A DNA stretch of 64,000 nucleotides from Candidatus Niyogibacteria bacterium (GCA_016432485.1 CP066691.1:11348-75347); one strand, 5' to 3'. Counted from the first letter of the stretch, positions 2,199 through 58,084 are shown. The notes: generated by a model not told the origin, from the sequence alone. Numbers and translations are program-made.

Positions 2199-4376
2199 GT
2201 GTCTAAAAACGTGAAAATTATAGCTACTCTGGGCCCCGCAACCAGAAAAGAAGGCGATGTGCTTAAAATGCGCGGCCGTGTTGATTTTATCAGGGTAAAT
2301 ATGTCCCACTCTTCGCTTGAGGACTTGGATTATTTTGTTAAAATTTCAAAAAAAGTCGGCATCCCTTTTATTCTTGATACCGAGGGGTCGCAGATAAGGA
2401 GCGGAAGGTTTGAAAAACCGCCCGTTTATTTTAATAAAAACGATATGGTGGAGCTTTTGGGCGAGAGCGGAATTAAATCTGTAGGAGATAAAAATAAGAT
2501 TTATCTTCGTCCAAAAGAAATAATCCCGCAGCTTGAAGAAGGAGATATTCTTTATATGGATTTTGACACGTTGGCTTTGCGTGTTACCGATAACACTTTG
2601 CGTGACAAGGGGCGCGTTGGGACTAGCGTTATTACGGGAGGTTTTTTGGGCAACAATAAAGGTGTCGTGGTTGATTCGGCTTTTACTAAATCATATAGTT
2701 TGCCCACTCTTTCGCCAAAAGACACAGAAGCCATAAAAATCGGACTTGCTGAAAACCTCGGCTATATCGCCGCCTCGTTTATGCGTTCGGGGGAGGCCGT
2801 TGATGAGGTAAGAGAGGAAACGGATGGCAAGATGAAAATTATTTCAAAGATAGAATGCCAAGACGGCCTGAATAATTTAGATGACATTATTGCCAAGTCC
2901 GACTTTTTGCTTATTGACAGGGGCGACTTAAGTAAAGAAGTCCCTTTGGAAGACATCCCGTTTCTGCAAAAGGAAATAATTTCAAAAGCAAAAAGCGCAG
3001 GCAAAGGCACGTATGTCGCCACAAATCTTTTAGAAACAATGGTTGAGAAGAAAAAATCGACAAGGGCTGAAGTATGCGACGTGGTCAATATAATCCGCGA
3101 CGGAGCTTATGGGCTGACGTTGGCGTCAGAGACCGCCATAGGAAAATATTCCATGGAATGTATAAATATGCTAAATACCTTAATCTCGCGCGCCGGGTTG
3201 GGAAAAGGCAGCGACGCTTTAATTGCCCCTCACGGCGGAAAGCTTATCCATAGAATGATAAACACCCCGCCCGATAGTTCTTACTTAAACTCGCTTAAAA
3301 AATTGGAAATATCAGATGATATAGCGATGGACACGGAGCAGATAGCAACCGGCGTTTTCAGCCCACTGGAAGGTTTTATGGGGCGGGCAGATTTTCAAAG
3401 CGTTTTAGACAGCGCCCGTCTTGCAAACGGTCTGGTCTGGCCGCTTCCGATTGTTCTGGACGCCAGGCAAAATGACGCTGACGGATTTAATGCCGGAGAA
3501 GATATCGCGCTTACGCATAAGGGAGAGACACTTGCCATTTTACACTTGGATGAAAAATTTAATTTTGACAAAAAAGAAACAGCCCGAAAGATTTACGGAA
3601 CTCTAAACGAAGAACATACCGGCGTGCGGGGGGTTTTCGCGATGAATCCGGTTTTACTTGCCGGAAAAATTTCTCTTTTAAAAAGGAGAAATGCCGAACA
3701 CTTGGCTTACGCTCTGACTCCGAAGCAAGTGAGGCGGATTTTTAAAGAAAGGCACTGGTCGCGCGTGGTCGGGTTTCATACAAGAAATGTGATTCATAGA
3801 AGTCATGAGCATATACAGCTTGCCGCAATGAAGCAGGAAAACTGCGACGGGCTGTTTGTGCATCCGGTGGTCGGTAAGAAAAAGCCTGGCGATTACAACG
3901 CACGCTACATAATCAAGAGTTATGAAAGGATGCTCGGCGGCTTATATCCTGAAAATAAAGTTGTACTCGCAGCTTTCAATACCTATTCAAGATATGCCGG
4001 GCCAAGAGAGGCGTTATTTACCGCCATTTGCCGCCAGAATTTCGGCTGCAGTCATTTTGTGGTCGGACGAGACCATACCGGAGTCGGAAATTTTTATCCT
4101 CCGACGGCCTCGCACGACATATTTGACAAGTTTCCCGACCTGGGCATTAAAGCCGTGAAATTTGACGAAGTGTTTTATTCCAAAAAACTGGGTGCTTATG
4201 TGCGCGGCGAGGACAGCCCGAATCATGCTCCCGAGGACAAACTTTCCATCAGCGGCACCCAGGCGCGAAAAATGTTTGAGCGCGGTGTGGCGCCTCCGGA
4301 GTGGTTTATGCGCCCGGAAGTGTCCGGAATAATTATTGACGCCTTAAAACGCGGCGAAAAAGTGTTTGTGGAATAA
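2199..4376 (+). CDS. sat: Fusion protein: N-terminal pyruvate-kinase-like barrel domain (about aa 1-335) + C-terminal sulfate adenylyltransferase (ATP sulfurylase, Sat)
   Basis: The N-terminal part shows PK signatures in order: KIIATLGPAT, RVNMSHSS, LDTEGSQIR, ISKIECQDGLNN, LIDRGDLSKEVP, ATNLLETM, STRAEVCDV. The C-terminal part shows ATP sulfurylase signatures: APHGGKLI, GFHTRNVIHRSHEHIQ, VHPVVGKKKPGDY, VVGRDHTGVG. GTG start. Confidence 0.8.
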   Translation: MSKNVKIIATLGPATRKEGDVLKMRGRVDFIRVNMSHSSLEDLDYFVKISKKVGIPFILDTEGSQIRSGRFEKPPVYFNKNDMVELLGESGIKSVGDKNKIYLRPKEIIPQLEEGDILYMDFDTLALRVTDNTLRDKGRVGTSVITGGFLGNNKGVVVDSAFTKSYSLPTLSPKDTEAIKIGLAENLGYIAASFMRSGEAVDEVREETDGKMKIISKIECQDGLNNLDDIIAKSDFLLIDRGDLSKEVPLEDIPFLQKEIISKAKSAGKGTYVATNLLETMVEKKKSTRAEVCDVVNIIRDGAYGLTLASETAIGKYSMECINMLNTLISRAGLGKGSDALIAPHGGKLIHRMINTPPDSSYLNSLKKLEISDDIAMDTEQIATGVFSPLEGFMGRADFQSVLDSARLANGLVWPLPIVLDARQNDADGFNAGEDIALTHKGETLAILHLDEKFNFDKKETARKIYGTLNEEHTGVRGVFAMNPVLLAGKISLLKRRNAEHLAYALTPKQVRRIFKERHWSRVVGFHTRNVIHRSHEHIQLAAMKQENCDGLFVHPVVGKKKPGDYNARYIIKSYERMLGGLYPENKVVLAAFNTYSRYAGPREALFTAICRQNFGCSHFVVGRDHTGVGNFYPPTASHDIFDKFPDLGIKAVKFDEVFYSKKLGAYVRGEDSPNHAPEDKLSISGTQARKMFERGVAPPEWFMRPEVSGIIIDALKRGEKVFVE

Positions 4377-4392
4377 ATAAGGATGAACAAAT

Positions 4393-5364
4393 CTAACCGC
4401 GTCTAAATAATTCGCGCATTAAAGCCCCGCCCATACTCTTCATTCTTTTTATTTCCCTGATAATCTCCGTTCTCGCTTTTCTTTTTAAATGCCCTTCCGG
4501 GAGAAGGGTAATATGTTTATAACTTTTGTAGACCTCGTCCAGTTTTAAAGGAGAAAAACGTTTTAGCGCCTGTAGCCGTTCTATATCTGCAAAAATGGTT
4601 TCTTTTGGAATTTTTGCTGTCGGGTTATTATAGTACGCGTCAAAAATCGGAAGTAATTCGTCCCAAAATGGATGCGGAGCGAGAGTTACTTCCGTATCCT
4701 CGTTTCCGCGCGGACCGTAATGGGCGCTAACAAAGTGTCCGTCGCGCCATTTTTGCGCTCTCTTTGGATGTGAATCAGGAAAAGTTACTTTCCACCACTC
4801 GTTTAAATGCGGTCTCATAGCCAGATTGAGAAATGAAGACAGAGCTTCAATTGTGTCGTTATTTCTGCTAATGATGTCTTCCATTCGCGCGCGCAGCACT
4901 TTGTCCAGCAGGAAGCTTTTAATGAAGAAAGTCGTATAATCAATGGCGGCGCAAACCACGTTATTATCGGTAAAATATTGTGTTATAGTGCTGTTTTTGG
5001 CCAACCAGGTTCTTATGTCGCGGATTGTAAAAATTACAGGGTGGGGATTAAGAATGTCCATGGGGCAAGCGTTCATTTCGAATTCCGGCGCGTCAGAGCC
5101 CACGACCTTAAAAGGATATCCTTTTTCGGCTAAAAATTTTTGCAAGCGTATAAAAAAATCCTCCGGTATTGCTCCGTAGGAAAAAAGATTTCTGGCATCA
5201 GGGTAAGAAGAAATAAATCGCCCTCCGTATTTATCAAGCGAGTGTCTGCCGATTCTTGTTTCATACAGAATAAAAACATCCGGGTGGGCATTAAGCATTT
5301 GCACGATGACCGAGGTGCCGGTTTTGGCCGCGCCCACGACAAAAATAATGTTTTTATTCTCCAT
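4393..5364 (-). CDS. Sulfotransferase family protein (PAPS-dependent type)
   Basis: An N-terminal 5'-PSB-like P-loop (IFVVGAAKTGTSVI) and an RD-x-R..S region (TIRDIRTWLAKNS) are present. The gene is convergent with the sat fusion gene. Confidence 0.6.
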   Translation of the reverse strand: MENKNIIFVVGAAKTGTSVIVQMLNAHPDVFILYETRIGRHSLDKYGGRFISSYPDARNLFSYGAIPEDFFIRLQKFLAEKGYPFKVVGSDAPEFEMNACPMDILNPHPVIFTIRDIRTWLAKNSTITQYFTDNNVVCAAIDYTTFFIKSFLLDKVLRARMEDIISRNNDTIEALSSFLNLAMRPHLNEWWKVTFPDSHPKRAQKWRDGHFVSAHYGPRGNEDTEVTLAPHPFWDELLPIFDAYYNNPTAKIPKETIFADIERLQALKRFSPLKLDEVYKSYKHITLLPEGHLKRKARTEIIREIKRMKSMGGALMRELFRRG

Positions 5365-7240: not shown

Positions 7241-7522
7241 ATGCCCAGTACAATTACACCGATTGTGTTCTTCTACACTTATGTTCTGCGTAGCGATAAA
7301 GATGGCGATAATTACATAGGTTACAGCCACGATCTAAAAAAGAGATCAGAAGAACACAAAAAAGGCCTTGTTCCTGCCACTAAACACAGAAGGCCATTGA
7401 AGTTAATATATTATGAAGCATGTTTAAACAAAGAGGACGCTCAACAAAGAGAAAGATATTTAAAAACCACAAGGGGTCGAAGGTGGTTTGGCATGAGATT
7501 GCGAAATTATAAATCGGTGTAA
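7241..7522 (+). CDS. GIY-YIG nuclease family protein (YhbQ/UPF0213-like, 93 aa)
   Basis: GIY-YIG core (FYTYVLRSDKDGDNYIGYSHDLKKRSEEH) with C-terminal RERYLK...GRRW. The ORF is bounded by 18-bp perfect inverted repeats. Confidence 0.8.
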   Translation: MPSTITPIVFFYTYVLRSDKDGDNYIGYSHDLKKRSEEHKKGLVPATKHRRPLKLIYYEACLNKEDAQQRERYLKTTRGRRWFGMRLRNYKSV

Positions 7523-7530
7523 TTGTACTG
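7244..7530 (+). mobile_element. Small putative mobile unit: GIY-YIG ORF flanked by perfect terminal inverted repeats cagtacaattacaccgat / atcggtgtaattgtactg
   Basis: The sequence at 7246-7263 is the exact reverse complement of 7513-7530. The unit is inserted precisely between the ABC gene stop (7238) and the next gene. Its termini (CCCAGTACAATTA) are shared with the 140-bp element at 9836-9974. Confidence 0.6.
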
Positions 7531-8845
7531 CAAAACCTGTTTGCCCGGAATTATTTTTCACGAGCACTATGATGCCTGGGACGGCAAGCCCGCGCCGGCT
7601 TTGGCTTCGGCCGAATTTGAGCCGCCGTCTTACGAACTTATCAGTAAGTTCCATAAGACGGAGTCATTAGTCTTAACAATGATGAATAAACGTTTTGACT
7701 GGATGGGGACGGATGAACGAAGACATCTTTACTACACAATGCTTTCATACTGGAACGGAGTGGTTAAAAAATTTAATCCGGATGCCGTGATTTTCAGTAC
7801 TGCTCCGCACACCGTGTATGATTATATTCTTTACGAAATCGCGCGCTCGGAAAACATTAAAACAGTTATGTTTTGGAATATGTCTCCGATAGACGGCCGG
7901 CTGTTTTTCTATGAAGATTTTCGCGAGGGGAGCGGGCTTTTAAGTAAAATTACGCGAAAAAACATGAGTTACAATTTTTCGGTTTCTGATTTAAGCGAGG
8001 AAACGAGGAAATTTTATGAAACCGGAACATTAATCGGCGTTGACGCCCTCCCGCTCTATTTAAAAGAAGACCATGAACGCTTCGCTTTTTTAAACAGGAT
8101 GATTCTAAAGACGAAAGCGATTTTAGCGACTATTAAGCGGGGAGAATTTGTTGAACAGACGGCGCGGCGCGCGGCCAATTTTTTTAAAGAAAATATCCGG
8201 GACGAACACATTCGGGCGCAGTTTATTCCCGATTACTCCCAAAAATTCGTTTATGTCCCTCTGCATTATCAGCCCGAATGCACAACTTCCCCCTTGGGAG
8301 ACATATTTGTTGACCAAATTCTGATGATTAAAATTCTTTCAGCGTCTCTTCCCGTCGGATGGAAAATTTACGCAAAAGAACATCCTTTTCAATGGTATCA
8401 GCGCGGGCTAAATTTCGCGGGCTCGCGTTACCGCGGCTACTACGATAAAATATCCGGCATTAAAAATGTTCGTCTGGTGCCCCTGGAAACTGACAATTAT
8501 GAACTGATAAATCGCGCTCAAGCCGTGGCAACCGTCGGCGGCACCGCCGGCATTGAGGCGCTTTTACGCCAAAAACCCGTTATAGTTTTTGGTTATCCCT
8601 GGTATCGCTCTTGTCCCCATGTTTTCAAAGCGGACGGCGTGGAATCTTGCAGCAAGGCTCTTCAAAAAATCGCGGACGGATTTTCCGTGAATAATCAATC
8701 GATAATAAATTTTTTAAAAAACCTTGACGAAAGCACGATTCGCGGGTATGTTGACGAATATGGTCAGAGGTTTGTAAGGTTGAGCGCGGAAGAAAACTCG
8801 GCAAACATATCGCGCGCGATTTTGGAAATAATAACGGAAAAATAA
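7523..8845 (+). CDS. Capsule_synth family protein (KpsS/KpsC-like beta-Kdo-transferase family; candidate CMP-ulosonic-acid transferase)
   Basis: Blocks align with E. coli KpsS: VYVPLHYQPE, EHPFQWYQRG, LVPLETDNYELINRAQAVATVGGTAGIEALLRQKPVIVFG. The true start is probably the ATG at 7679 (MMNKRF...), because 7523-7678 contains the IR terminus and a strong hairpin and uses a TTG start. Confidence 0.6.
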   Translation: MYCKTCLPGIIFHEHYDAWDGKPAPALASAEFEPPSYELISKFHKTESLVLTMMNKRFDWMGTDERRHLYYTMLSYWNGVVKKFNPDAVIFSTAPHTVYDYILYEIARSENIKTVMFWNMSPIDGRLFFYEDFREGSGLLSKITRKNMSYNFSVSDLSEETRKFYETGTLIGVDALPLYLKEDHERFAFLNRMILKTKAILATIKRGEFVEQTARRAANFFKENIRDEHIRAQFIPDYSQKFVYVPLHYQPECTTSPLGDIFVDQILMIKILSASLPVGWKIYAKEHPFQWYQRGLNFAGSRYRGYYDKISGIKNVRLVPLETDNYELINRAQAVATVGGTAGIEALLRQKPVIVFGYPWYRSCPHVFKADGVESCSKALQKIADGFSVNNQSIINFLKNLDESTIRGYVDEYGQRFVRLSAEENSANISRAILEIITEK

Positions 8846-9835: not shown

Positions 9836-9974
9836 CCCAGTACAATTAAATCGAATGCTAAATTTAGTTTCTTGGGTGGTATAAATATGTATTATTATAA
9901 AATTATATTTAAGCAAATTAGTCGGGAGTTTGCTTGCGAATTTAGCAAGAAACTTTCGATTTAATTGTACTGGG
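9836..9974. mobile_element. MITE-like ORF-less element with 20-bp perfect terminal inverted repeats (cccagtacaattaaatcgaa ... ttcgatttaattgtactggg)
   Basis: The sequence at 9836-9855 is the exact reverse complement of 9955-9974. Its termini match those of the GIY-YIG unit at 7244-7530. It fills the entire pseB-pseC spacer, and its right end supplies GGG just before the pseC ATG. Confidence 0.6.
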
Positions 9975-20130: not shown

Positions 20131-20583
20131 ATGAAGTTAATGGACTTGAAGCCCGCGGAAATACGCTCTTATTTGGAGATGTTGCTTAAATGGAGGAATG
20201 ACCCGGATACGAGGCGGCAATCCAGAAGAACTCAGGTTTTTAAAAAAGGGGATTACGAAAGAGAGCTTTTGGGAAGAGTTGCCCAAAATGGGATTATTTA
20301 TCTCGCTTTGGAAAATAAAAAACCGGTTGGGGTTTTGATGGTTGATAAATTTTCTGAAGGCGAAGGTCTTGAGTTTTCGTGGACCGTCGCGCCCCAAGAA
20401 CGCGGAAAGGGATTCGGCAAAAAAATGCTCGCTCTGGCCGTTAAAGACCCAAGGTTCGCGGGTGAAAGACTGGTGGCGGTAATAAAAAACAGGAACTATG
20501 CTTCAATAAAAATGGTGCATGGCCTCGGTTTTGTAAAATTTTCGAAAAAAGGAGGAATGTCTTTTTGGGAAAGAAATAATTGA
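20131..20583 (+). CDS. pseH: GNAT family N-acetyltransferase, candidate PseH
   Basis: 150 aa. Acetyl-CoA motif A QERGKGFGKKML. Position between pseF and pseI. The ORF-track start at 19882 overlaps the upstream gene, so the ATG at 20131 is preferred. Confidence 0.55.
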   Translation: MKLMDLKPAEIRSYLEMLLKWRNDPDTRRQSRRTQVFKKGDYERELLGRVAQNGIIYLALENKKPVGVLMVDKFSEGEGLEFSWTVAPQERGKGFGKKMLALAVKDPRFAGERLVAVIKNRNYASIKMVHGLGFVKFSKKGGMSFWERNN

Positions 20584-20612
20584 GCCCCGCCTCGGCGCGG
20601 GCCTTTCTTTTC
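20584..20612 (+). terminator. Terminator-like imperfect GC hairpin (gccccgcctcggcgcgggc) followed by T-rich tract
   Basis: Lies immediately after the pseH stop. It is followed by cctttcttttcc. Confidence 0.4.
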
Positions 20613-20615
20613 CTA

Positions 20616-20656
20616 TCCGAATCCGAACTCGGTTCGGACCGAACTCGGTTCGGATT
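20616..20656. repeat. Intergenic copy of the CCGAACTCGGTTCGG palindromic repeat family (two tandem half-units)
   Basis: Reads tccgaactcggttcgga ccgaactcggttcgga. The same half-unit forms the perfect palindromes at 23030-23070 and 23210-23250. Confidence 0.6.
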
Positions 20657-20774
20657 TGTGCGGGAAAACAATTGCCCCGAGTTTTTGCTGCGGAGTGTCC
20701 GGAATGCGCGCTTCTTAACCATCATTTGACACAATGTATTTTTAAGCGTAGTTTGATGGTTATTCAACGTAAAT

Positions 20775-21890
20775 ATGTCGGAAATTTTTAAAATTGGCAA
20801 TAAGTCGGTTGGAGGCGGACAGCCGGTTTTTTTGGTGGCCGAAATTTCCGCGAACCACCATCAAAAATATGAAGAAGCGGTTAAGCTGGTGAGGGCGGCG
20901 CGCGAGGCCGGGGCTGACGCCGTAAAACTTCAGACCTACACTCCCGACACCATAACTTTGAATTCCGACAAAGAGTGGTTTAGGGTGGGCGGGGAAAATA
21001 ACCCCGATGATTGGCAGAAAAAGACCCTTTACCAGCTTTACCAGGCCGCCTATACCCCCTGGGAATGGCAGCCAAAGCTGAAAAAACTCGCGGATGACCT
21101 GGACATTATTCTTTTTTCAACGCCTTTTGATGAAAGCGCGGTTGATTTTCTGGAGTCTATTGAAGTTCCTTGCTATAAAATTGCTTCGTATGAAGTTAAC
21201 GATTTTTTGCTTTTGCGCCGCGTTGCCCGCACCGGAAAGCCGGTTATAATTTCCTTGGGTTATGCTTCAGCAAAGGACGCCGACTTCGCTATAAAAACTT
21301 TGCGCGAAAACGGAGCCAAGGACATAGCCGCGCTTCATTGCGTAACGCAATACGAAACAGAGCCGGATTTTTCCGGCATGAATTTGGCGACGATTAAAAA
21401 TATTGCCGAACGGTTTGACGTTGTGTCCGGATTTTCCGATAATAACGCGGGTATTGAAGCGCCGTTGATTGCGGCCGCCGCGGGCGCCAAGATTATTGAA
21501 AAGCATGTTATTTTGGATAGAAAAAGCGGAGGTTCGGATGCCGGATTTTCTCTGGAACCGCAGGAATTTAAATTGATGGCTGAAAAAATAAGGGCAGGCG
21601 ACAGTATTGCCGATGGTGAAAAAACAAAAATCGCTTTGGGCGGCGTTCATTACGGACCGGCCAGCGCCGCCGAAGAACACAATAAACGTTTCCGCCGTTC
21701 GCTCTTCGTTTGCAAAAACATTAAAAGAGGCGAGAAATTTAGTCCCGAAAATATTCGTTCTGTTCGTCCGGCATTCGGCTTGCCCACCAAGCATTTTGAC
21801 GAAATAATCGGCAGAGCCGCGACCGCGGATATTGAATTCGGCACGCCTCTGAAAAAAGAACACATAAAGGGCCGCCTTGATTTAAATTGA
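20775..21890 (+). CDS. pseI: Pseudaminic acid synthase / N-acetylneuraminate synthase family (NeuB/PseI) with C-terminal SAF domain
   Basis: KIGNKSVGGGQPVFLVAEISANHHQKYEEA, KLQTY, IISLGYAS, EKHVILDR, C-terminal SAF (NIRSVRP). Confidence 0.85.
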   Translation: MSEIFKIGNKSVGGGQPVFLVAEISANHHQKYEEAVKLVRAAREAGADAVKLQTYTPDTITLNSDKEWFRVGGENNPDDWQKKTLYQLYQAAYTPWEWQPKLKKLADDLDIILFSTPFDESAVDFLESIEVPCYKIASYEVNDFLLLRRVARTGKPVIISLGYASAKDADFAIKTLRENGAKDIAALHCVTQYETEPDFSGMNLATIKNIAERFDVVSGFSDNNAGIEAPLIAAAAGAKIIEKHVILDRKSGGSDAGFSLEPQEFKLMAEKIRAGDSIADGEKTKIALGGVHYGPASAAEEHNKRFRRSLFVCKNIKRGEKFSPENIRSVRPAFGLPTKHFDEIIGRAATADIEFGTPLKKEHIKGRLDLN

Positions 21891-21913
21891 TATAGCCTGC
21901 TATATTAAAATTT

Positions 21914-24154
21914 ATGAACTTAATCAAATATCTGGGTTGGGCGATAATCGTCGGTCTTTTCGCGATTGTCCTCATAACCCCCTTCTTCGTTTCGGAATCA
22001 ATGTTTTTTCCGTTTATTACGGGCAAAAATTTTTTATTCCGTATAATCGTTGAAATAATTTTCGCTCTCTGGATTATATTGGCTATGGCCGACAGCCGGT
22101 ATCGGCCAAAGGCCTCGCCCATATTGTGGGCAGCGTGCTCTGTTGTCGGGGTTTTAATCCTTTCCACGATTTTTGGCGTAAACCCTTATCGCAGTTTTTG
22201 GTCTAACTTCGAAAGAATGGAGGGCTTAATATCGCATCTGCATCTACTCGCCTATTTTTTGGTTTTGATAAGCATGTTTAAGTCGTCCATTCAGTGGCGC
22301 AGATTTTTTTATGCTATCTCGGCTTCCGGAGCGGCTATGGCTTTATACGGATATTTTCAGGCGCTCGGTATTTTGACAATCTCCGTTCAAAGCGGTCCGC
22401 GCGCGGACGGCTCGTTCGGCAACGCGAGTTATATGGCCATTTTCATCCTTTTAAACGTCTTTTTCGCTTCTTACTTGTTTTTTACCGAAGAGCGCAAGTG
22501 GCTGAAAAACATATTCGCGGGATTAGTCGTTTTTGAAATTCCCGTTGTGTTTTTGACGGCAACTCGAGGCGCGATTCTGGGGCTTATCGGCGGTTTTTTT
22601 CTTCTCGCCCTGCTTCTCGCCTTTTTTTCAAAAGACAAGCGCTTTCGCTGGGCTTCGATCGGCGTGATAGGAGGCGTTATTCTTTTGGTTCTGATTTTTC
22701 TTTCGGTAAAAAATACCGATTTTGTCAGGAATAACTATGTTTTCCAGCGTTTCGGCGACCTTAGTTTTGCGGAGCGAACGATCCAGTCGCGTTTTATTAT
22801 TTGGAAAATGTCATTTGAGGGGTTTAAGGAAAGGCCAATTTTTGGATGGGGAATTGAAAATTTCGGTCAGGTTTTTAACAAATATTATGAGCCTGCTTTA
22901 TGGCTCCAGGAGCCGTGGTTTGACCGGGCGCATAATGTTATTTTTGACTGGCTTGTGAGTTCCGGCATCATCGGACTTTTGGCATACTTATCGCTTTTTG
23001 GTTCGGCCATATATATTATTTGGAAAAAATCCGAACTCGGTTCGGAATTGGATTCCGAACCGAGTTCGGAATCGGAATCTGCAAAATTGATAACGGCAGT
23101 AGTTTTTACCTCGCTTCTTGCCGCTTACTTTTTTAACAACTTTTTTATTTTTGACAACCTAACATCTTATATTCTATTTTTTTCCGTTCTAGCCTTTATC
23201 CACTTTTATACGAACTCGGTTCGGAATCCAATTCCGAACCGAGTTCGGACTTGGACATCGGGGCCACTTCATTCGTTTCTTGTGGCATTTATTATTTTGG
23301 GGCTTATTTTTTCACTCTATTTCTTAAATATAAAACCGATATTGGCCAATACTTGGCTTTTGCAGGCGCTAAAGGACACTAATTTTCAAGGACAAAATAT
23401 TGATTTGGTCTTATCCGATTTTGAAAATGTCTTTAATTTACGGACATTTGGAACAGGGGAGGCGAGAGAGCAGTTAAGCACCTATGCTAATGCTGTTTTC
23501 GGTTCCGTTTTGCCCCAAAAGTTAAAGGACAAAGTCACACAAGTGTCTATTAATGAGCTTGAACGTCAGACTAGGGATAATCCTGAAGATCCTCGCGGTT
23601 ATCTTTTTCTGTCCTCTATGTATACCAATGCCGGACGCCACGAGGACGCCCTGCGCGCGGTTGAGCGTGCCCTTGAGCTTTCTCCAAATAAACAGCAAAT
23701 TCTTTTCCTTTTAGCGGAAACTCACCTTAATCTGGGCGGCGTTAAAAGGGCCTATGATTTGGTAAAAATTGCTTATGAATCGGCCCCGGAATATCAAAAA
23801 GCAGTCCAAAATTTTGCCACTATGTCCATTATTAATGGTTTGTCCGATGAAGCTGAAAAGGCTCTGATAAAATTTTTTGGGACTGCTCTGGTGGCAGATC
23901 AGCAGTTGGTTAATGCCTACGCGCGGGTTGGAAATTACGAACGGGTACGCGATATTTGGTTGGAATTCATTAGGAAGGACCCGCAAAACGTCCAATATCA
24001 TATTAATCTTGCTGCCACCTATATGGAGCTTGGCGAGCGTCGGGAGGCCATAAATGAAATTGAAAAAGCCATTGAACTAAATCCTCAATTTAAAGATCAG
24101 GGCAGAGCGCTGATAAATGAGATAAATGCCGGCAGGAATCCTGTGAGCAGGTAA
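21914..24154 (+). CDS. Membrane protein with O-antigen ligase/Wzy_C-like polytopic domain fused to C-terminal TPR repeats; candidate glycan ligase/oligosaccharyltransferase
   Basis: About 12 TM segments with a Wzy_C-like region (TATRGAILGLIGGFFLL). The C-terminal 250 aa consists of TPR repeats. It contains two in-frame palindromic insertions. Confidence 0.6.
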   Translation: MNLIKYLGWAIIVGLFAIVLITPFFVSESMFFPFITGKNFLFRIIVEIIFALWIILAMADSRYRPKASPILWAACSVVGVLILSTIFGVNPYRSFWSNFERMEGLISHLHLLAYFLVLISMFKSSIQWRRFFYAISASGAAMALYGYFQALGILTISVQSGPRADGSFGNASYMAIFILLNVFFASYLFFTEERKWLKNIFAGLVVFEIPVVFLTATRGAILGLIGGFFLLALLLAFFSKDKRFRWASIGVIGGVILLVLIFLSVKNTDFVRNNYVFQRFGDLSFAERTIQSRFIIWKMSFEGFKERPIFGWGIENFGQVFNKYYEPALWLQEPWFDRAHNVIFDWLVSSGIIGLLAYLSLFGSAIYIIWKKSELGSELDSEPSSESESAKLITAVVFTSLLAAYFFNNFFIFDNLTSYILFFSVLAFIHFYTNSVRNPIPNRVRTWTSGPLHSFLVAFIILGLIFSLYFLNIKPILANTWLLQALKDTNFQGQNIDLVLSDFENVFNLRTFGTGEAREQLSTYANAVFGSVLPQKLKDKVTQVSINELERQTRDNPEDPRGYLFLSSMYTNAGRHEDALRAVERALELSPNKQQILFLLAETHLNLGGVKRAYDLVKIAYESAPEYQKAVQNFATMSIINGLSDEAEKALIKFFGTALVADQQLVNAYARVGNYERVRDIWLEFIRKDPQNVQYHINLAATYMELGERREAINEIEKAIELNPQFKDQGRALINEINAGRNPVSR
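23030..23070. repeat. 41-bp perfect palindromic element inserted in frame in CDS (encodes SELGSELDSEPSSE)
   Basis: Reads tccgaactcggttcggaat tgg attccgaaccgagttcgga. Two 19-bp arms are exact reverse complements, with a 3-nt spacer. Confidence 0.7.
23210..23250. repeat. Second copy of the palindromic element, opposite orientation (spacer cca), in frame (encodes TNSVRNPIPNRVRT)
   Basis: Reads acgaactcggttcggaat cca attccgaaccgagttcggac. It is read in a different frame and orientation from copy 1, which argues for DNA-level insertion. Confidence 0.7.
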
Positions 24155-24328
24155 AAAAATTTTACCTCGGATACTTATCCACAGGTCGCCTACTTGCGGC
24201 CTTTTTTCTTTAATAAGATACTAAATACAAGGGCATTTTATATGTCCTGAAATGGTCTGAATTTTAATAATTTTTTATTATTAATTATTAAATAGTTTAA
24301 TTACTAATTAATCTAAAAGCATAAAAAT

Positions 24329-25816
24329 ATGCGTAATGTCTTAAGTTTTTTTGATACTCGTCGAATCAGCGGCATAATTGCCGCGACAGTTTTGTCGCTT
24401 TTAATGGTGGCCCTCATTACATACGGTGCGACCACAATAAGCACGAATATAGATACTGCAGGAACATTGAATGTTAGCGGCGCAACTACGCTTAACGGCG
24501 CGGCTACTTTGGGCGATGCGATTGGTGACAATGTTACAATAACCGGCAATGCCACCACATCGAATTCATTGTATGTGACCGGCGGATTTGTTGTTGATGG
24601 TTATGCGACTACAACAGCGAACAACGGAAATTTCGAGACTGCGGGCACGCTTACCGTAACCGGCGCCTCAAACTTGAACGGCGCGGTAACTTTGGGTGAT
24701 GCGATTGGTGACAATGTTACAATAACCGGCAATGCCACCACATCGAATTCATTGTATGTGACCGGCGGATTTGTTGTTGATGGTTATGCGACTACAACAG
24801 CGGGCAGTGGAAATTTCGCGACCGAAGGCTCGCTTTTGGTTACCGATCTTTCTACTTTGACCGGCGGTTTTATTTCCTCCGCTTCCTCTACGGTAAATTC
24901 TCGCTTGAATGTGCAAGGTCCGCTTTCAGCTTCCAGCTCATTGATAGTGGCCGGCACGGCAACTTTTGATGGTAATGTTACGGTAACAGGCACTTTCTCG
25001 CCTTCGCAGACGTCAGCAACTAACTTTACTGTTAACGCTTCCACCTCCTTAAACAGAGTACAGGTAGCAGGAAATTTTTCAGCTTCTTCCACAGCTGACA
25101 TATTGGGGGAGGCAAATTTTCAGGGCGGATTTATTGGTAACTCTTCCTCCTCTGTAAATAGGTTGCAGGTTGCCGGGTACCTTTCAGCTTCCAGCTCATT
25201 ATTGGTGGCCGGAGCAACTACGCTTGATGGCGCGGTTACTTTGGGAAATGCCGAGGCAGACAACATTGCGGTCTCAGGCACAATCACCGGATTTTTCTCT
25301 AACGCTTCTTCATCCGTTCATTCCAACTTTAACGTAAATGGCCCGCTTTCCGCTTCCAGCTCATTGATAGTGGCCGGAGCAAGTACGCTTGATGGTAATG
25401 TCACTTTGGGCAATGCCGCGGCGGACGTCATTACAATTACTGGCAACGCCTCCACGACCAACTCATTGACGGTTGGGGCCACGGCAAGCACGACTAAATT
25501 AATTGTCGGTGGCAATGATATAAACGGCACATTTGCCGGAATGGTCTTTGGGACCTGCAACTTGACATCCGCAGCTCTTGCTGCCTCAACGACCAAGAAC
25601 TTTGCCTGCACGAGCGCCACAGGAGTGCGCTCTAGCGATACACTATTCGTTAACGCGACTTCCAGTTTGGTTTCCGGCCGTTTTGACGATCAAATCTTCA
25701 TTCGCGCAGCGTCTTCGTCAATTCTCAACCAGATAAATGTGGATATTACCAATACAGGAATAACCTCGGGTTCTCAAACAATATCAGGCACTTTGCAATT
25801 CTGGGCAGTGCGATAA
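24329..25816 (+). CDS. Thr/Gly/Asn/Ser-rich tandem-repeat surface protein with N-terminal membrane anchor; candidate glycosylated filament/adhesin
   Basis: N-terminal hydrophobic anchor, then 61-aa repeats (GDAIGDNVTITGNATTSNSLYVTGGFVVDGYATTTA). A 105-bp DNA block is exactly duplicated at 24515-24619 and 24698-24802. The protein is 35-40% Ser+Thr+Gly+Asn+Ala. Confidence 0.6.
   Translation: MRNVLSFFDTRRISGIIAATVLSLLMVALITYGATTISTNIDTAGTLNVSGATTLNGAATLGDAIGDNVTITGNATTSNSLYVTGGFVVDGYATTTANNGNFETAGTLTVTGASNLNGAVTLGDAIGDNVTITGNATTSNSLYVTGGFVVDGYATTTAGSGNFATEGSLLVTDLSTLTGGFISSASSTVNSRLNVQGPLSASSSLIVAGTATFDGNVTVTGTFSPSQTSATNFTVNASTSLNRVQVAGNFSASSTADILGEANFQGGFIGNSSSSVNRLQVAGYLSASSSLLVAGATTLDGAVTLGNAEADNIAVSGTITGFFSNASSSVHSNFNVNGPLSASSSLIVAGASTLDGNVTLGNAAADVITITGNASTTNSLTVGATASTTKLIVGGNDINGTFAGMVFGTCNLTSAALAASTTKNFACTSATGVRSSDTLFVNATSSLVSGRFDDQIFIRAASSSILNQINVDITNTGITSGSQTISGTLQFWAVR
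24474..24802. repeat. Intragenic tandem repeat (183-bp period, 105-bp identical core)
   Basis: The core gatgcgattggtgacaatgttacaataaccggcaatgccaccacatcgaattcattgtatgtgaccggcggatttgttgttgatggttatgcgactacaacagcg occurs twice. Confidence 0.8.
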
Positions 25817-48731: not shown

Positions 48732-48887
48732 TTATCCACAATAGAGGATTTGATTGTTTTTTAGAGTAAAGTGGTATAAAATTATATATAAGTGGTGAAT
48801 TGTGGATAAATCTGTGGATAGTGTGGATAAATACCGATATTGCCTACGAACGGAGTGAGTAGACGCAATATCGAGCGTTTATCCACC
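48732..48887. promoter_or_regulatory. Cluster of five DnaA boxes plus AT-rich tract (oriC-like or DnaA-regulated region) upstream of mraZ
   Basis: TTATCCACA at 48732-40. TGTGGATAA at 48801-09 and 48823-31. TGTGGATAG at 48814-22. TTATCCACC at 48879-87. AT-rich run aaagtggtataaaattatatataag at 48770-48795. Confidence 0.6.
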
Positions 48888-49032
48888 CTCACACCCAAAA
48901 ATCACGTATTATGTTCAATTTTTATGAATCATATTCAAGGAGAGAATTAAAAGCGACGCCCCCCAAGTTGTTTTTGGGTGTGAGGGTGCGCAATTTTACA
49001 ACCAAAATTTCTTCGCCTAACGGCTCGAAATT

Positions 49033-56504: not shown

Positions 56505-57395
56505 ATGGCCAATCGTCACCTTTCCCGCAGCATAGTTTTGCAGACCCTCTTTGAATGGGATTTTAACGGTTTTGTTTCAAAGAGCGCGGATGCCGGGCTT
56601 GAGCGCAATTTAAGCGAATTCGCTCCCGGACTTGAAGACGGCGGTTTTTCCAAAAAATTGATTAAGGGCATTGTTAAAAAGCGAAAGGAGCTGGATAAAA
56701 TCATTGAAAAAGCGGCGCCCGAATGGCCTTTGGCGCAAATCGCGATGATTGATCGCAATGTTCTGCGCATCGGACTTTACGAGCTTATTTTCGGCGACCG
56801 AAAAGAGGTGCCTCCGAAAGTTGCCATCAACGAAGCGATAGAACTGGCCAAGACTTTCGGCGGCGATTCATCCGGCAGGTTCGTCAACGGGGTTCTGGGC
56901 ACGGTTTACCGCGAAATGGGCGAGCCGGGCAAAGACGACGACAGTCAAAAAAAGAAAAAAATAGCCGACCCGTCAAAACTTCCCCGAGAAGAATTGGGCG
57001 GGGGTGTTGTGTATCGGCGCGAAAATGGAAAATTAAGTTTCGCTTTGGTGCATGATGTTTTCGGATACTGGACGCTTTCCAAGGGACATCTTGAGGAGGA
57101 TGAGGATGCCCGTCAAGGAACTAGCCGCGAACTTGCCGAAGAGCTGGGACTTAAAAATCTGGAACTGCTTGAAGAAATAGGAGTTAATGAATACATCGCT
57201 TCAGACCCCAAAAAAGGTCCGGTCAGGCGGCGCGTATCCTATTTTTTAGTTGAAGCAAAAGATAAAGATTTGCGGCTTGGGCCATCTGGCGGATTGGATG
57301 ACGCCCGATGGTTCAGCATTGAAGAAATGGAAGATTTAAAAATATATGACGATATCCGTCCGCTTATTCAAAAAGCGCTTTTGAAATTAAAATGA
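56505..57395 (+). CDS. nusB: Fusion: transcription antitermination factor NusB (N-terminal) + Nudix hydrolase (C-terminal)
   Basis: The NusB fold covers about aa 1-140 (SRSIVLQTLFEWDF...). A canonical Nudix box GHLEEDEDARQGTSRELAEELGL (G-x5-E-x7-REUxEExGU) lies in the C-terminal half. Confidence 0.75.
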   Translation: MANRHLSRSIVLQTLFEWDFNGFVSKSADAGLERNLSEFAPGLEDGGFSKKLIKGIVKKRKELDKIIEKAAPEWPLAQIAMIDRNVLRIGLYELIFGDRKEVPPKVAINEAIELAKTFGGDSSGRFVNGVLGTVYREMGEPGKDDDSQKKKKIADPSKLPREELGGGVVYRRENGKLSFALVHDVFGYWTLSKGHLEEDEDARQGTSRELAEELGLKNLELLEEIGVNEYIASDPKKGPVRRRVSYFLVEAKDKDLRLGPSGGLDDARWFSIEEMEDLKIYDDIRPLIQKALLKLK

Positions 57396-58084
57396 GAGAA
57401 TTTTCAAACTTTGAGCAGGAAATAGGCTATTCTTTTCAAAGTAAGGATTTGCTTACCGAAGCTTTTACCCACCGTTCTTATTTGAATGAGAATCCGTCCT
57501 GGCCTGGCGCCCATAACGAGCGTCTGGAATTTTTAGGAGACGCTGTTTTGGAATTGATAATCACCGAATATCTTTTTTACCGATTTCCCGAAAAGCCGGA
57601 AGGCGAATTAACCAGTCTTCGGGCGGCTCTTGTTAATGCCGGCATGCTTTCAAGCGTCGCTTCGGACATGGAAATGAATAATTTTTTGCTTTTGTCGCGC
57701 GGAGAAGCCAAGGATGTCGGGCGGGCCAGAGGTTATATTTTGGCTAACGCGGTGGAGGCGTTGATAGGCGCTTTGTATCTTGACGGCGGGCAGAGCGCCG
57801 CCAAAAATTTTATTGATAAATATATCGCGGTTAAAACCGATCTGGTTTTGGAAAAGCATTTATACCGCGACGCCAAAAGTCTTTTTCAGGAGAAAGCGCA
57901 GGATATTATCGGTATTACTCCCAATTATAAAGTTCTTGAAGAATGGGGGCCTGACCACGATAAACATTTTGTTATAGGGGTCTTTATCGGAGATGAACTT
58001 GCGGCTTCAGGCGAAGGTCCCTCAAAGCAAACTGCCGAACAGAATGCCGCCGAGGATGCGCTGAAAGTTAAGGGCTGGCAGTGA
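57392..58084 (+). CDS. rnc: Ribonuclease III
   Basis: ERLEFLGDAVLELIITEYL catalytic signature plus C-terminal dsRBD. Confidence 0.85.
   Translation: MREFSNFEQEIGYSFQSKDLLTEAFTHRSYLNENPSWPGAHNERLEFLGDAVLELIITEYLFYRFPEKPEGELTSLRAALVNAGMLSSVASDMEMNNFLLLSRGEAKDVGRARGYILANAVEALIGALYLDGGQSAAKNFIDKYIAVKTDLVLEKHLYRDAKSLFQEKAQDIIGITPNYKVLEEWGPDHDKHFVIGVFIGDELAASGEGPSKQTAEQNAAEDALKVKGWQ

Follow-up and report, generated by a model that had tools for sequence, protein, structure and literature searches.

Palindromic hairpin repeats in and near an O-antigen-ligase-like gene of Candidatus Niyogibacteria

How DNA palindromes came to stand twice within a coding sequence that nevertheless remains open is the question raised by a surface-glycan gene cluster of Candidatus Niyogibacteria. 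The window, i.e., the whole stretch of DNA analyzed here, comprises 64 kb (GCA_016432485.1 CP066691.1:11348-75347) of a metagenome-assembled genome (MAG) consisting of a single contig of 836,981 bp. The sequence under study is a self-complementary repeat, all three sites of which fall within 2.6 kb of the cluster: one in the spacer between the genes of a GNAT acetyltransferase and a NeuB-like sugar synthase (site 1), and two inside the gene of an O-antigen-ligase-like protein (sites 2 and 3). A preliminary description, made from the sequence alone, regarded them as in-frame insertions of an active or recently active repeat family. Comparison with orthologs showed that the two intragenic inserts are lineage-specific additions or replacements at the DNA level. 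The explanation favored here, with a probability of about 0.5, is a low-copy repeat of the repetitive extragenic palindrome (REP)/REPIN type, or another miniature palindromic hairpin repeat, copied at the DNA level and tolerated in frame.

Structure of the repeat and of its three copies

The basic unit, found by direct reading of positions 20500-23400, is the 15-mer CCGAAC-TCG-GTTCGG, which forms a small hairpin by itself with a 6-bp stem. Six matches to it, at no more than two mismatches, were found in the window against 0.18 expected, and none of 100 shuffled sequences reached this number. The six units always occur as pairs, which make up the three sites (Table 1); at sites 2 and 3 they are inverted doublets folding into stems of 17-19 bp, and at site 1 a direct doublet. 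Perfect palindromes with arms of at least 12 nt almost never arise in Markov-simulated 64-kb sequences of the same composition.

The palindrome of site 2 (23030-23070) is perfect and consists of two 19-nt arms around the spacer TGG, TCCGAACTCGGTTCGGAAT-TGG-ATTCCGAACCGAGTTCGGA. At site 3, the perfect palindrome is represented by 17-nt arms around the spacer CCA (23211-23247), and arms of 19 nt are obtained only with one mismatch (23209-23249); accordingly, the earlier statement of two perfect 41-bp palindromes with 19-bp arms holds for site 2 and not for site 3. Over 39 nt (23030-23068 versus 23212-23250), site 3 is the reverse complement of site 2, including the spacers, TGG versus CCA. The two sites are offset by 179 nt and are therefore read in different frames, so that both the opposite orientation and the different frames noted previously were confirmed.

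Each copy has its terminal hexamer repeated in tandem on one side, one base of it being site-specific: TCGGAA TCGGAA at site 2 (23066-23077), TCGGAC TTGGAC at site 3 and TCGGAT TCGGAT at the remaining copy. Together with the duplicated hexamer, both intragenic blocks measure 48 nt; the 16 codons of site 2 encode SELGSELDSEPSSESE (aa 373-388), and site 3, in the other reading frame, encodes (Y)TNSVRNPIPNRVRTWT. No stop codons are present in the element in any of the six frames, and the flanks of the three copies have nothing in common outside the core. As single-stranded DNA, sites 2 and 3 fold with energies of -23.8 and -21.0 kcal/mol, respectively (z -7.2 and -6.9).

Site 1, which the preliminary description had correctly located in the pseH-pseI spacer as a related tandem copy, consists of two 15-mers in direct orientation with one A between them. 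A longer imperfect hairpin (20599-20677), the 39-nt arms of which are 72% complementary, has site 1 as its core; the RNA fold calculated for the site is -44.9 kcal/mol (z -5.5). The upstream neighbor of site 1, 3' of the GNAT gene, is a terminator-like hairpin (20586-20601) with a T-run.

Origin of the intragenic copies

The sequence of the locus is reproduced in five independent Logan short-read assemblies of the same organism, which are 100% identical to the window, site 1 included. Five of the six recovered contigs end at position 23059, the point at which branching of a k=31 de Bruijn graph is unavoidable, provided that site 3 repeats the 31-mers of site 2 in reverse complement. Since the contigs stop exactly at the predicted branch, the inverted repeat is present in the raw data of several samples, and an artifact of MAG assembly is an unlikely source of the palindromes. 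Contigs pass straight through site 1, and therefore its 31-mers are unique in those samples. Neither the whole ligase nor its C-terminal fragment nor two proteins encoded downstream gave any record in the protein and contig collections searched. At the 39-nt inverted repeat, k=31 assemblies of this organism break at one and the same base; MAGs of the candidate phyla radiation (CPR) are fragmented by such elements, and genes carrying them become hidden, as is the case for the complete ligase, which is missing from the protein collections searched.

The host gene encodes a Wzy_C (O-antigen-ligase-like) membrane domain (E 1.7e-23) with TPR repeats behind it, and its 746-codon open reading frame (ORF) is indeed open, as originally described. 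Thousands of full-length homologs were found in Patescibacteria, the nearest being 60-66% identical and the best 66%. Two alignments, one of 28 and one of 120 sequences, were analyzed; columns invariant across the 28 sequences are all kept in the query, by definition, the query being among them. The loop W370-L401, which carries site 2, contains 30 aa in the query versus 13-24 aa in 118 of the 119 other sequences and 20 aa in the closest homolog. In a comparison by codons with the two best orthologous loci, the 48-nt block of site 2 stands in place of two codons (Y-I) before the conserved S-A-K, and four codons further on are missing, which gives a net gain of 10 aa. The loop H430-Y469, which carries site 3, has 38 aa, inside the ortholog range of 31-50 aa.

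The 14-aa inserts, SELGSELDSEPSSE (aa 373-386) and TNSVRNPIPNRVRT (aa 433-446), are encoded as previously stated, and neither was found in any available ortholog, none of these having the same peptides with diverged DNA; the expectation that alignment would prove the inserts lineage-specific was borne out. In orthologous DNA (loci L105 and L107), intragenic palindromes and copies of the unit are absent. The same 39 nt encodes SELGSELDSEPSS at one site and NSVRNPIPNRVR at the other. The presence of the same DNA in two frames, together with the absence of the peptides from orthologs, indicates that the inserts arrived as DNA and not as conserved protein, and an identity of 39/39 nt across two frames cannot be maintained by selection at the protein level.

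These results also bear on the explanation that the inserts are ancient or selected peptide loops, i.e., low-complexity linkers rich in S/E or in R/N/P, whose DNA is palindromic by chance, or else an assembly artifact. Loop 2 is hypervariable in all orthologs and of ordinary length in the query, and S/E-rich linkers are common, as this explanation would have it; however, one and the same 39-nt sequence gives two unrelated peptides, both missing from orthologs, and the five assemblies agree with the window and break where the inverted repeat predicts. A search of 5.8 billion proteins with the concatenated six frame translations gave nothing at E<=10, with low power, a 14-aa exact match being probably below the threshold. 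Ancient peptides and artifact are, accordingly, effectively refuted.

Two other origins were tried and rejected. The whole region 23027-23252 is not an inserted MITE (miniature inverted-repeat transposable element), since its interior (23071-23208) encodes conserved helices with invariant residues and is therefore native gene sequence. An in-frame deletion between the copies acting as direct repeats was ruled out because the 179-nt offset would shift the frame.

The location of the inserts between hydrophobic segments, proposed in the preliminary description, agrees with an AlphaFold2 model of the ligase (predicted local distance difference test, pLDDT, 84.5; predicted template modeling score, pTM, 0.82) and with hydropathy analysis, both of which place the inserts in hydrophilic loops between hydrophobic helices. 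In the model, confidence dips at both inserts, which occupy helix ends and coils at aa 380-387 and 435-450, and the insert regions include two of the four segments with pLDDT <50. The inserts are separated by two transmembrane helices (388-411 and 416-434) with the FDNL turn between them and, consequently, lie on the same membrane face. One helix stands between insert 1 and the large conserved loop with R338/H340; if this loop is extracytoplasmic, as in characterized O-antigen ligases, both inserts would be cytoplasmic, which the flanking KK fits. The membrane side is thus assigned by counting helices and by the positive-inside rule rather than from a homolog of solved structure: a Foldseek search against PDB was dominated by the TPR domain, and a sequence search of PDB with the membrane domain gave no match.

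Copying at the DNA level and the competing explanations

In the favored explanation, DNA-level copying would have brought a short hairpin repeat to three places inside a 2.6-kb stretch, its units acting in pairs that form a stem of about 19 bp, and two copies would have entered loop-coding sequence of the Wzy_C-TPR gene or taken its place. Most likely, the copying would have passed through a hairpin intermediate of single-stranded DNA or resulted from gene conversion acting locally between hairpins. The absence of stops in six frames and the length of the blocks, a multiple of three, suffice for in-frame survival in a tolerant loop, and the copies would have been retained in variable hydrophilic linkers on the membrane face opposite the catalytic loop. 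We infer that the encoded peptides are neutral passengers with no function of their own and that the copying was recent. Small mobile DNA in the same cluster, namely, a 139-bp MITE-like element and a GIY-YIG cassette (elements B and A below), is counted in favor of this explanation.

A number of results weigh against it. No further or degenerate copy was detected in the other 61 kb of the window, looser patterns included, and the flanks recovered on Logan contigs, of 3.5 kb and 1.2 kb (4.7 kb in total), were likewise free of it. Among 185,579 species-representative GTDB genomes, scanned with a pattern that fits all three copies, the source genome not being confirmed among them, 15 doublet matches were found; all of them are chance matches in coding DNA of 56-71% GC, none is palindromic, several fall in clearly homologous conserved sequence, and none is a true copy. 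The exact doublet pattern gave no matches in JGI metagenomes, and no copy was found in IMG/VR. The 15-mer alone is uninformative as a probe at database scale, giving 89 single unpaired chance matches in IMG/VR. Pfam scans of about 55 ORFs of the window revealed no transposase, Y1_Tnp/RAYT, serine or tyrosine recombinase or invertase. Target-site duplications were not found around any copy, only the one-sided hexamer duplicate being present, and the tags GTAG/CTAC and CGTC/GACG are absent within or beside all three copies. Finally, site 3 fills a hypervariable loop without adding length and is therefore a replacement rather than a simple insertion. Thus, the frame is kept, as first described, and a clean insertion of 41/42 nt is not what was found, site 2 being a 48-nt block with a net gain of 10 aa and site 3 having a net gain of zero. 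A genome-wide family, or the active one originally claimed, is not supported: the three copies stand together in a 2.6-kb stretch, and no others were found in the organism's remaining sequence covered (about 66 kb), in GTDB, in JGI or in IMG/VR.

The same clustering, with no copies in any other sequence searched, would be expected from a strictly local origin, which is possible, though doubtful. In this case, a hexamer-periodic self-complementary tract (TCGGAA/TTCCGA-like) would have formed by slippage or template switching, it would have been copied from one neighboring position to another by intralocus gene conversion or templated repair, and the three copies would be the whole "family". The 6-nt periodicity and the terminal-hexamer duplicates with a site-specific base, which look like slippage, are consistent with such an origin, as are the replacement of loop sequence at site 3 and the unique 31-mers of site 1, through which contigs pass. 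However, identical 39-nt copies in two frames need a copying step, indistinguishable from short-range transposition; site 1 sits 2.4 kb off, in a typical REP position; and the scan covered only the above-mentioned part of the 836,981-bp genome.

Retention of the stems for cis action on DNA or RNA is unlikely. Possible roles of such functional nucleic-acid hairpins include cleavage of the ligase mRNA by RNase III or pausing of its translation, antisense termination and, at site 1, stabilization of the 3' end of the upstream transcript. The RNA stems of sites 2 and 3 have 17-19 bp, with folds of -33.8 and -29.5 kcal/mol (z about -5.7), their perfect symmetry is undecayed, and RNase III is encoded in the window (57392-58084); site 1 has a terminator-like hairpin on one side and the next gene on the other. 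On the minus strand, the stem of site 2 is followed by TTTTTT (23024-23070), which is the strongest terminator-like site in 20400-24400, and judging by its sequence, it could stop antisense transcription into the ligase gene. However, the T-run is present at site 2 only, orthologs do without these sequences, and since no relative carries them, neither covariation nor conservation is seen; the perfect symmetry is equally explained by recency. No known RNA was detected at the sites by Rfam or ARAGORN, and the likeness of GGTTCGGAATCC to a tRNA T-arm is coincidental.

An improbable explanation is that of an intragenic inverton, in which the palindrome pair would flank a segment flipped by a site-specific recombinase, switching the ligase off and resulting in phase variation of surface glycosylation. 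Inversion would join ...TGGAAAAAA to the reverse complement of 23071-23208, and its computed product contains premature stop codons, which fits an OFF state. The pair forms 42-nt inverted repeats of 98% identity, 142 nt apart, with symmetric arms around an asymmetric 3-nt spacer (TGG versus CCA), as in recombinase core sites, and the products of the locus are surface glycans, on which phase variation usually acts. Intragenic invertons have been described (bioRxiv 10.1101/2023.03.11.532203), and the ligase resembles them in having an inverted-repeat pair inside a surface-structure gene, the product of which would be truncated by inversion. It differs from them in the absence of a serine or tyrosine recombinase or other invertase from the window, in the third, unpaired copy at 20616 and in the palindromic nature of each repeat, owing to which the pair is equally direct or inverted; a 3-nt spacer is also a poor fit for either recombinase class. 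Very improbable, too, is a working switch, in which hairpin- or recombinase-mediated inversion of the 220-bp segment, or cruciform cleavage and repair, toggles the ligase. Such a switch might be linked to the structure-specific GIY-YIG nuclease cassette located 16 kb upstream in the cluster and, if true, would have no described precedent among intragenic phase-variation devices of CPR/Patescibacteria episymbionts.

Neighboring features and comparison with known systems

Features of the locus are listed in Table 1; the neighboring proteins are deposited in the MAG record as QQG46246-QQG46271.

Table 1. Coordinates of the repeat copies, their host gene and other features in the window
Feature	Coordinates	Strand	Description
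Site 1, intergenic direct doublet	20616-20656	.	TCCGAA-TCCGAACTCGGTTCGGA-CCGAACTCGGTTCGGA-TT
Site 2	23030-23077	+	Palindrome 23030-23070 plus duplicated terminal hexamer
Site 3	23209-23256	+	Palindrome with perfect core, then TCGGAC TTGGAC
Segment between the palindromes	23071-23208	+	Two conserved transmembrane helices, FDNL turn, invariant D414/N415
Host ligase gene, Wzy_C and C-terminal TPR	21914-24154	+	746 aa, ORF intact
NeuB/PseI-like sugar synthase gene	20775-21890	+	Between site 1 and the ligase gene; NCBI pseudaminic acid synthase QQG46248.1
GNAT acetyltransferase gene	20131-20583	+	Upstream of site 1; 150 aa as called on Logan contigs
Element A, GIY-YIG cassette	7244-7532		Pfam PF01541, E 2e-14; 92 aa as read, 93 aa in NCBI protein P0133
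Element B, MITE-like	9836-9974		139 bp, AT-rich, no ORF, perfect 20-nt terminal inverted repeats CCCAGTACAATTAAATCGAA

Two other inverted-repeat elements were found in the glycan cluster. Element A sits in a spacer, and the start and stop codons of its GIY-YIG gene lie inside perfect 19-nt inverted repeats CAGTACAATTACACCGATT (7246-7264 and 7512-7530). A 77%-identical GIY-YIG gene with the same 20-nt bounding repeat CCCAGTACAATTACACCGAT is present on a Jorgensenbacteria contig (L232, 1483-1774), and homologs are mostly located on very short contigs. Judging by its sequence, element A looks like a mobile cassette of about 290 bp; no description of such a GIY-YIG element was found in a full-text literature search. 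The repeats of element B are 17/20 identical to the ends of element A. On either side of element B, a MITE-like derivative, ATGA stands in direct orientation, apparently as a 4-bp target duplication, and the element sits where the upstream stop codon and the start codon of a DegT-like gene (ATG 9975) would otherwise overlap as ATGA. A Logan contig end was found inside element A at 7270, with two listed contigs standing for 15 samples, and one contig begins inside element B at 9934; these contig breaks suggest that both elements are multi-copy in the samples. The two elements show that miniature mobile DNA is present in this genome, and no sequence link was found between them and the 41-nt palindromes.

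Behind the ligase gene (24329-25816), a 495-aa protein is encoded that begins with a hydrophobic segment at its N-terminus, contains long internal near-repeats NGAxTLGDAIGDNVTITGNATTSNSLYVTGGFVVDGYATTTA... and has no Pfam match other than a weak, bactofilin-like one; it is probably a repetitive surface or filament protein. A single 725-aa ORF (2199-4376) joins a pyruvate-kinase barrel, PUA_2 and ATP-sulfurylase, a fusion that looks unusual; it is adjoined by a sulfotransferase-like gene (4393-5364), with an ABC exporter close by. Judging by this gene content, the surface glycan of this CPR bacterium may be sulfated. A perfect 18-nt inverted repeat, CACCCTCACACCCAAAAA / TTTTTGGGTGTGAGGGTG, surrounds 69 nt (48884-48988) just upstream of mraZ (49033), where the dcw cluster begins; it may be a hairpin with a regulatory role or one more small element.

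Highly reduced CPR genomes are believed to contain few repeats. If the element in the ligase gene is mobile, miniature hairpin repeats would remodel loops of membrane proteins even in reduced CPR genomes of about 0.84 Mb, and a very small (41-48 nt), tag-less type would join the spectrum of REPs and Rickettsia palindromic elements (RPEs).

A loosened pattern, with any loops and the same 6-bp stems, matched 116 loci in JGI metagenomes, which belong to unrelated families sharing only the specified stems. One of them is a MITE-like family of about 65 copies on 62 contigs of 48-50% GC (loci L120-L231 in Ga0163149, Ga0163151, Ga0163153 and Ga0163154), the host of which is probably not cyanobacterial, being HIP1-poor. 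Its members are at least about 100 nt long, have the structure ACATTTTTCAATTTGCTGGTCAAGGTACCG-CCGAACCCTGTTCGG-CGATGGATG-CCGAACAGGGTTCGG-CAGTACATTTCGGCACTCATCTGAAAAATG and are mostly intergenic, few being located in long ORFs. Similar to the element studied here, the core of this family contains CCGAAC-N3-GTTCGG twice (15+9+15), with opposite small hairpins in one long stem and a TGGAT-containing center; unlike it, the family has extra arms (ACATTTTTCAATTTGCTGGTCAAGGTACCG...), the loops CCT/AGG and other flanks. Since the 6-bp stems were imposed by the search pattern, this is an architectural parallel, homology not being shown. On unrelated metagenome contigs (loci L118, L124, L154, L211, L130, L199 and L147), tandem arrays with periods of 18-58 nt were found, in which the unit holds CCGAAC-N3-GTTCGG, e.g., CCGAACTACGTTCGGCAG; L147 contains four array copies at a 58-nt period.

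Among known systems, MITEs (ERIC, Coxiella QMITE and cyanobacterial MITEs) are likewise non-coding and hairpin-forming, and in-frame fusions with host ORFs are possible. They differ in length (70-300 bp) and in having terminal inverted repeats of 15-30 bp, an unrelated interior and target-site duplications, whereas the element in the ligase gene is represented by an inverted repeat with a 3-nt spacer and lacks duplications at its flanks. Of the classical MITE-like type is element B, the sequence of which is unrelated to the palindromes.

RPEs are about 100-150 bp long and are inserted in frame in functional genes, where the encoded peptide lies away from the protein core (PMC10969869). As in RPEs, a palindromic, selfish-looking repeat lies in frame in the ligase gene, the ORF of which stays open. 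Unlike the present element, RPEs comprise ten families, a genome having dozens of them inside genes; they bear a CGTC tag, and a conserved peptide is translated from a single frame, whereas here 41-48 nt, in three copies and two frames, encode unrelated peptides, and no sequence relationship is established; the likeness is a functional analogy only.

REPs are palindromes of 20-40 bp, often paired in opposite orientation and located mostly 3' of coding regions, at times in ORFs (PMC3733652); their inverted doublets are designated REPINs (PMC3116915). With these the element shares a palindromic unit of 15-20 nt, pairs often in opposite orientation, a larger hairpin of about 40 nt and, at site 1, the classical REP position just 3' of a coding region and terminator. 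Differences are represented by the absence of the GTAG or CGTC end tag (criterion of PMC3733652); three copies seen in about 69 kb versus tens to hundreds; the absence from the 64-kb window of a REP-associated tyrosine transposase (RAYT), i.e., an IS200/IS605-like Y1 HUH transposase; the intragenic location of two of the three copies, REPs being mostly extragenic; perfect stems, those of typical REPs being bulged; and a host belonging to CPR/Patescibacteria, which are not among the phyla listed for tagged REPs (PMC3733652). As the tag is missing, and with three copies and no RAYT seen in the sequence covered, the element is not filed as a REP. REPs that lie within ORFs and are translated in frame are known from several species (PMC3733652; PMC3116915; PMC3337134) and, at 20-40 bp, form a closer precedent than RPEs; the initial remark that in-frame palindromes are uncommon outside Rickettsia was therefore overstated. 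The locus is a clean but small case of a known phenomenon, by which no long-standing question is opened or closed: the element is a tag-less, very small palindromic repeat of an already known class able to sit in frame within genes.

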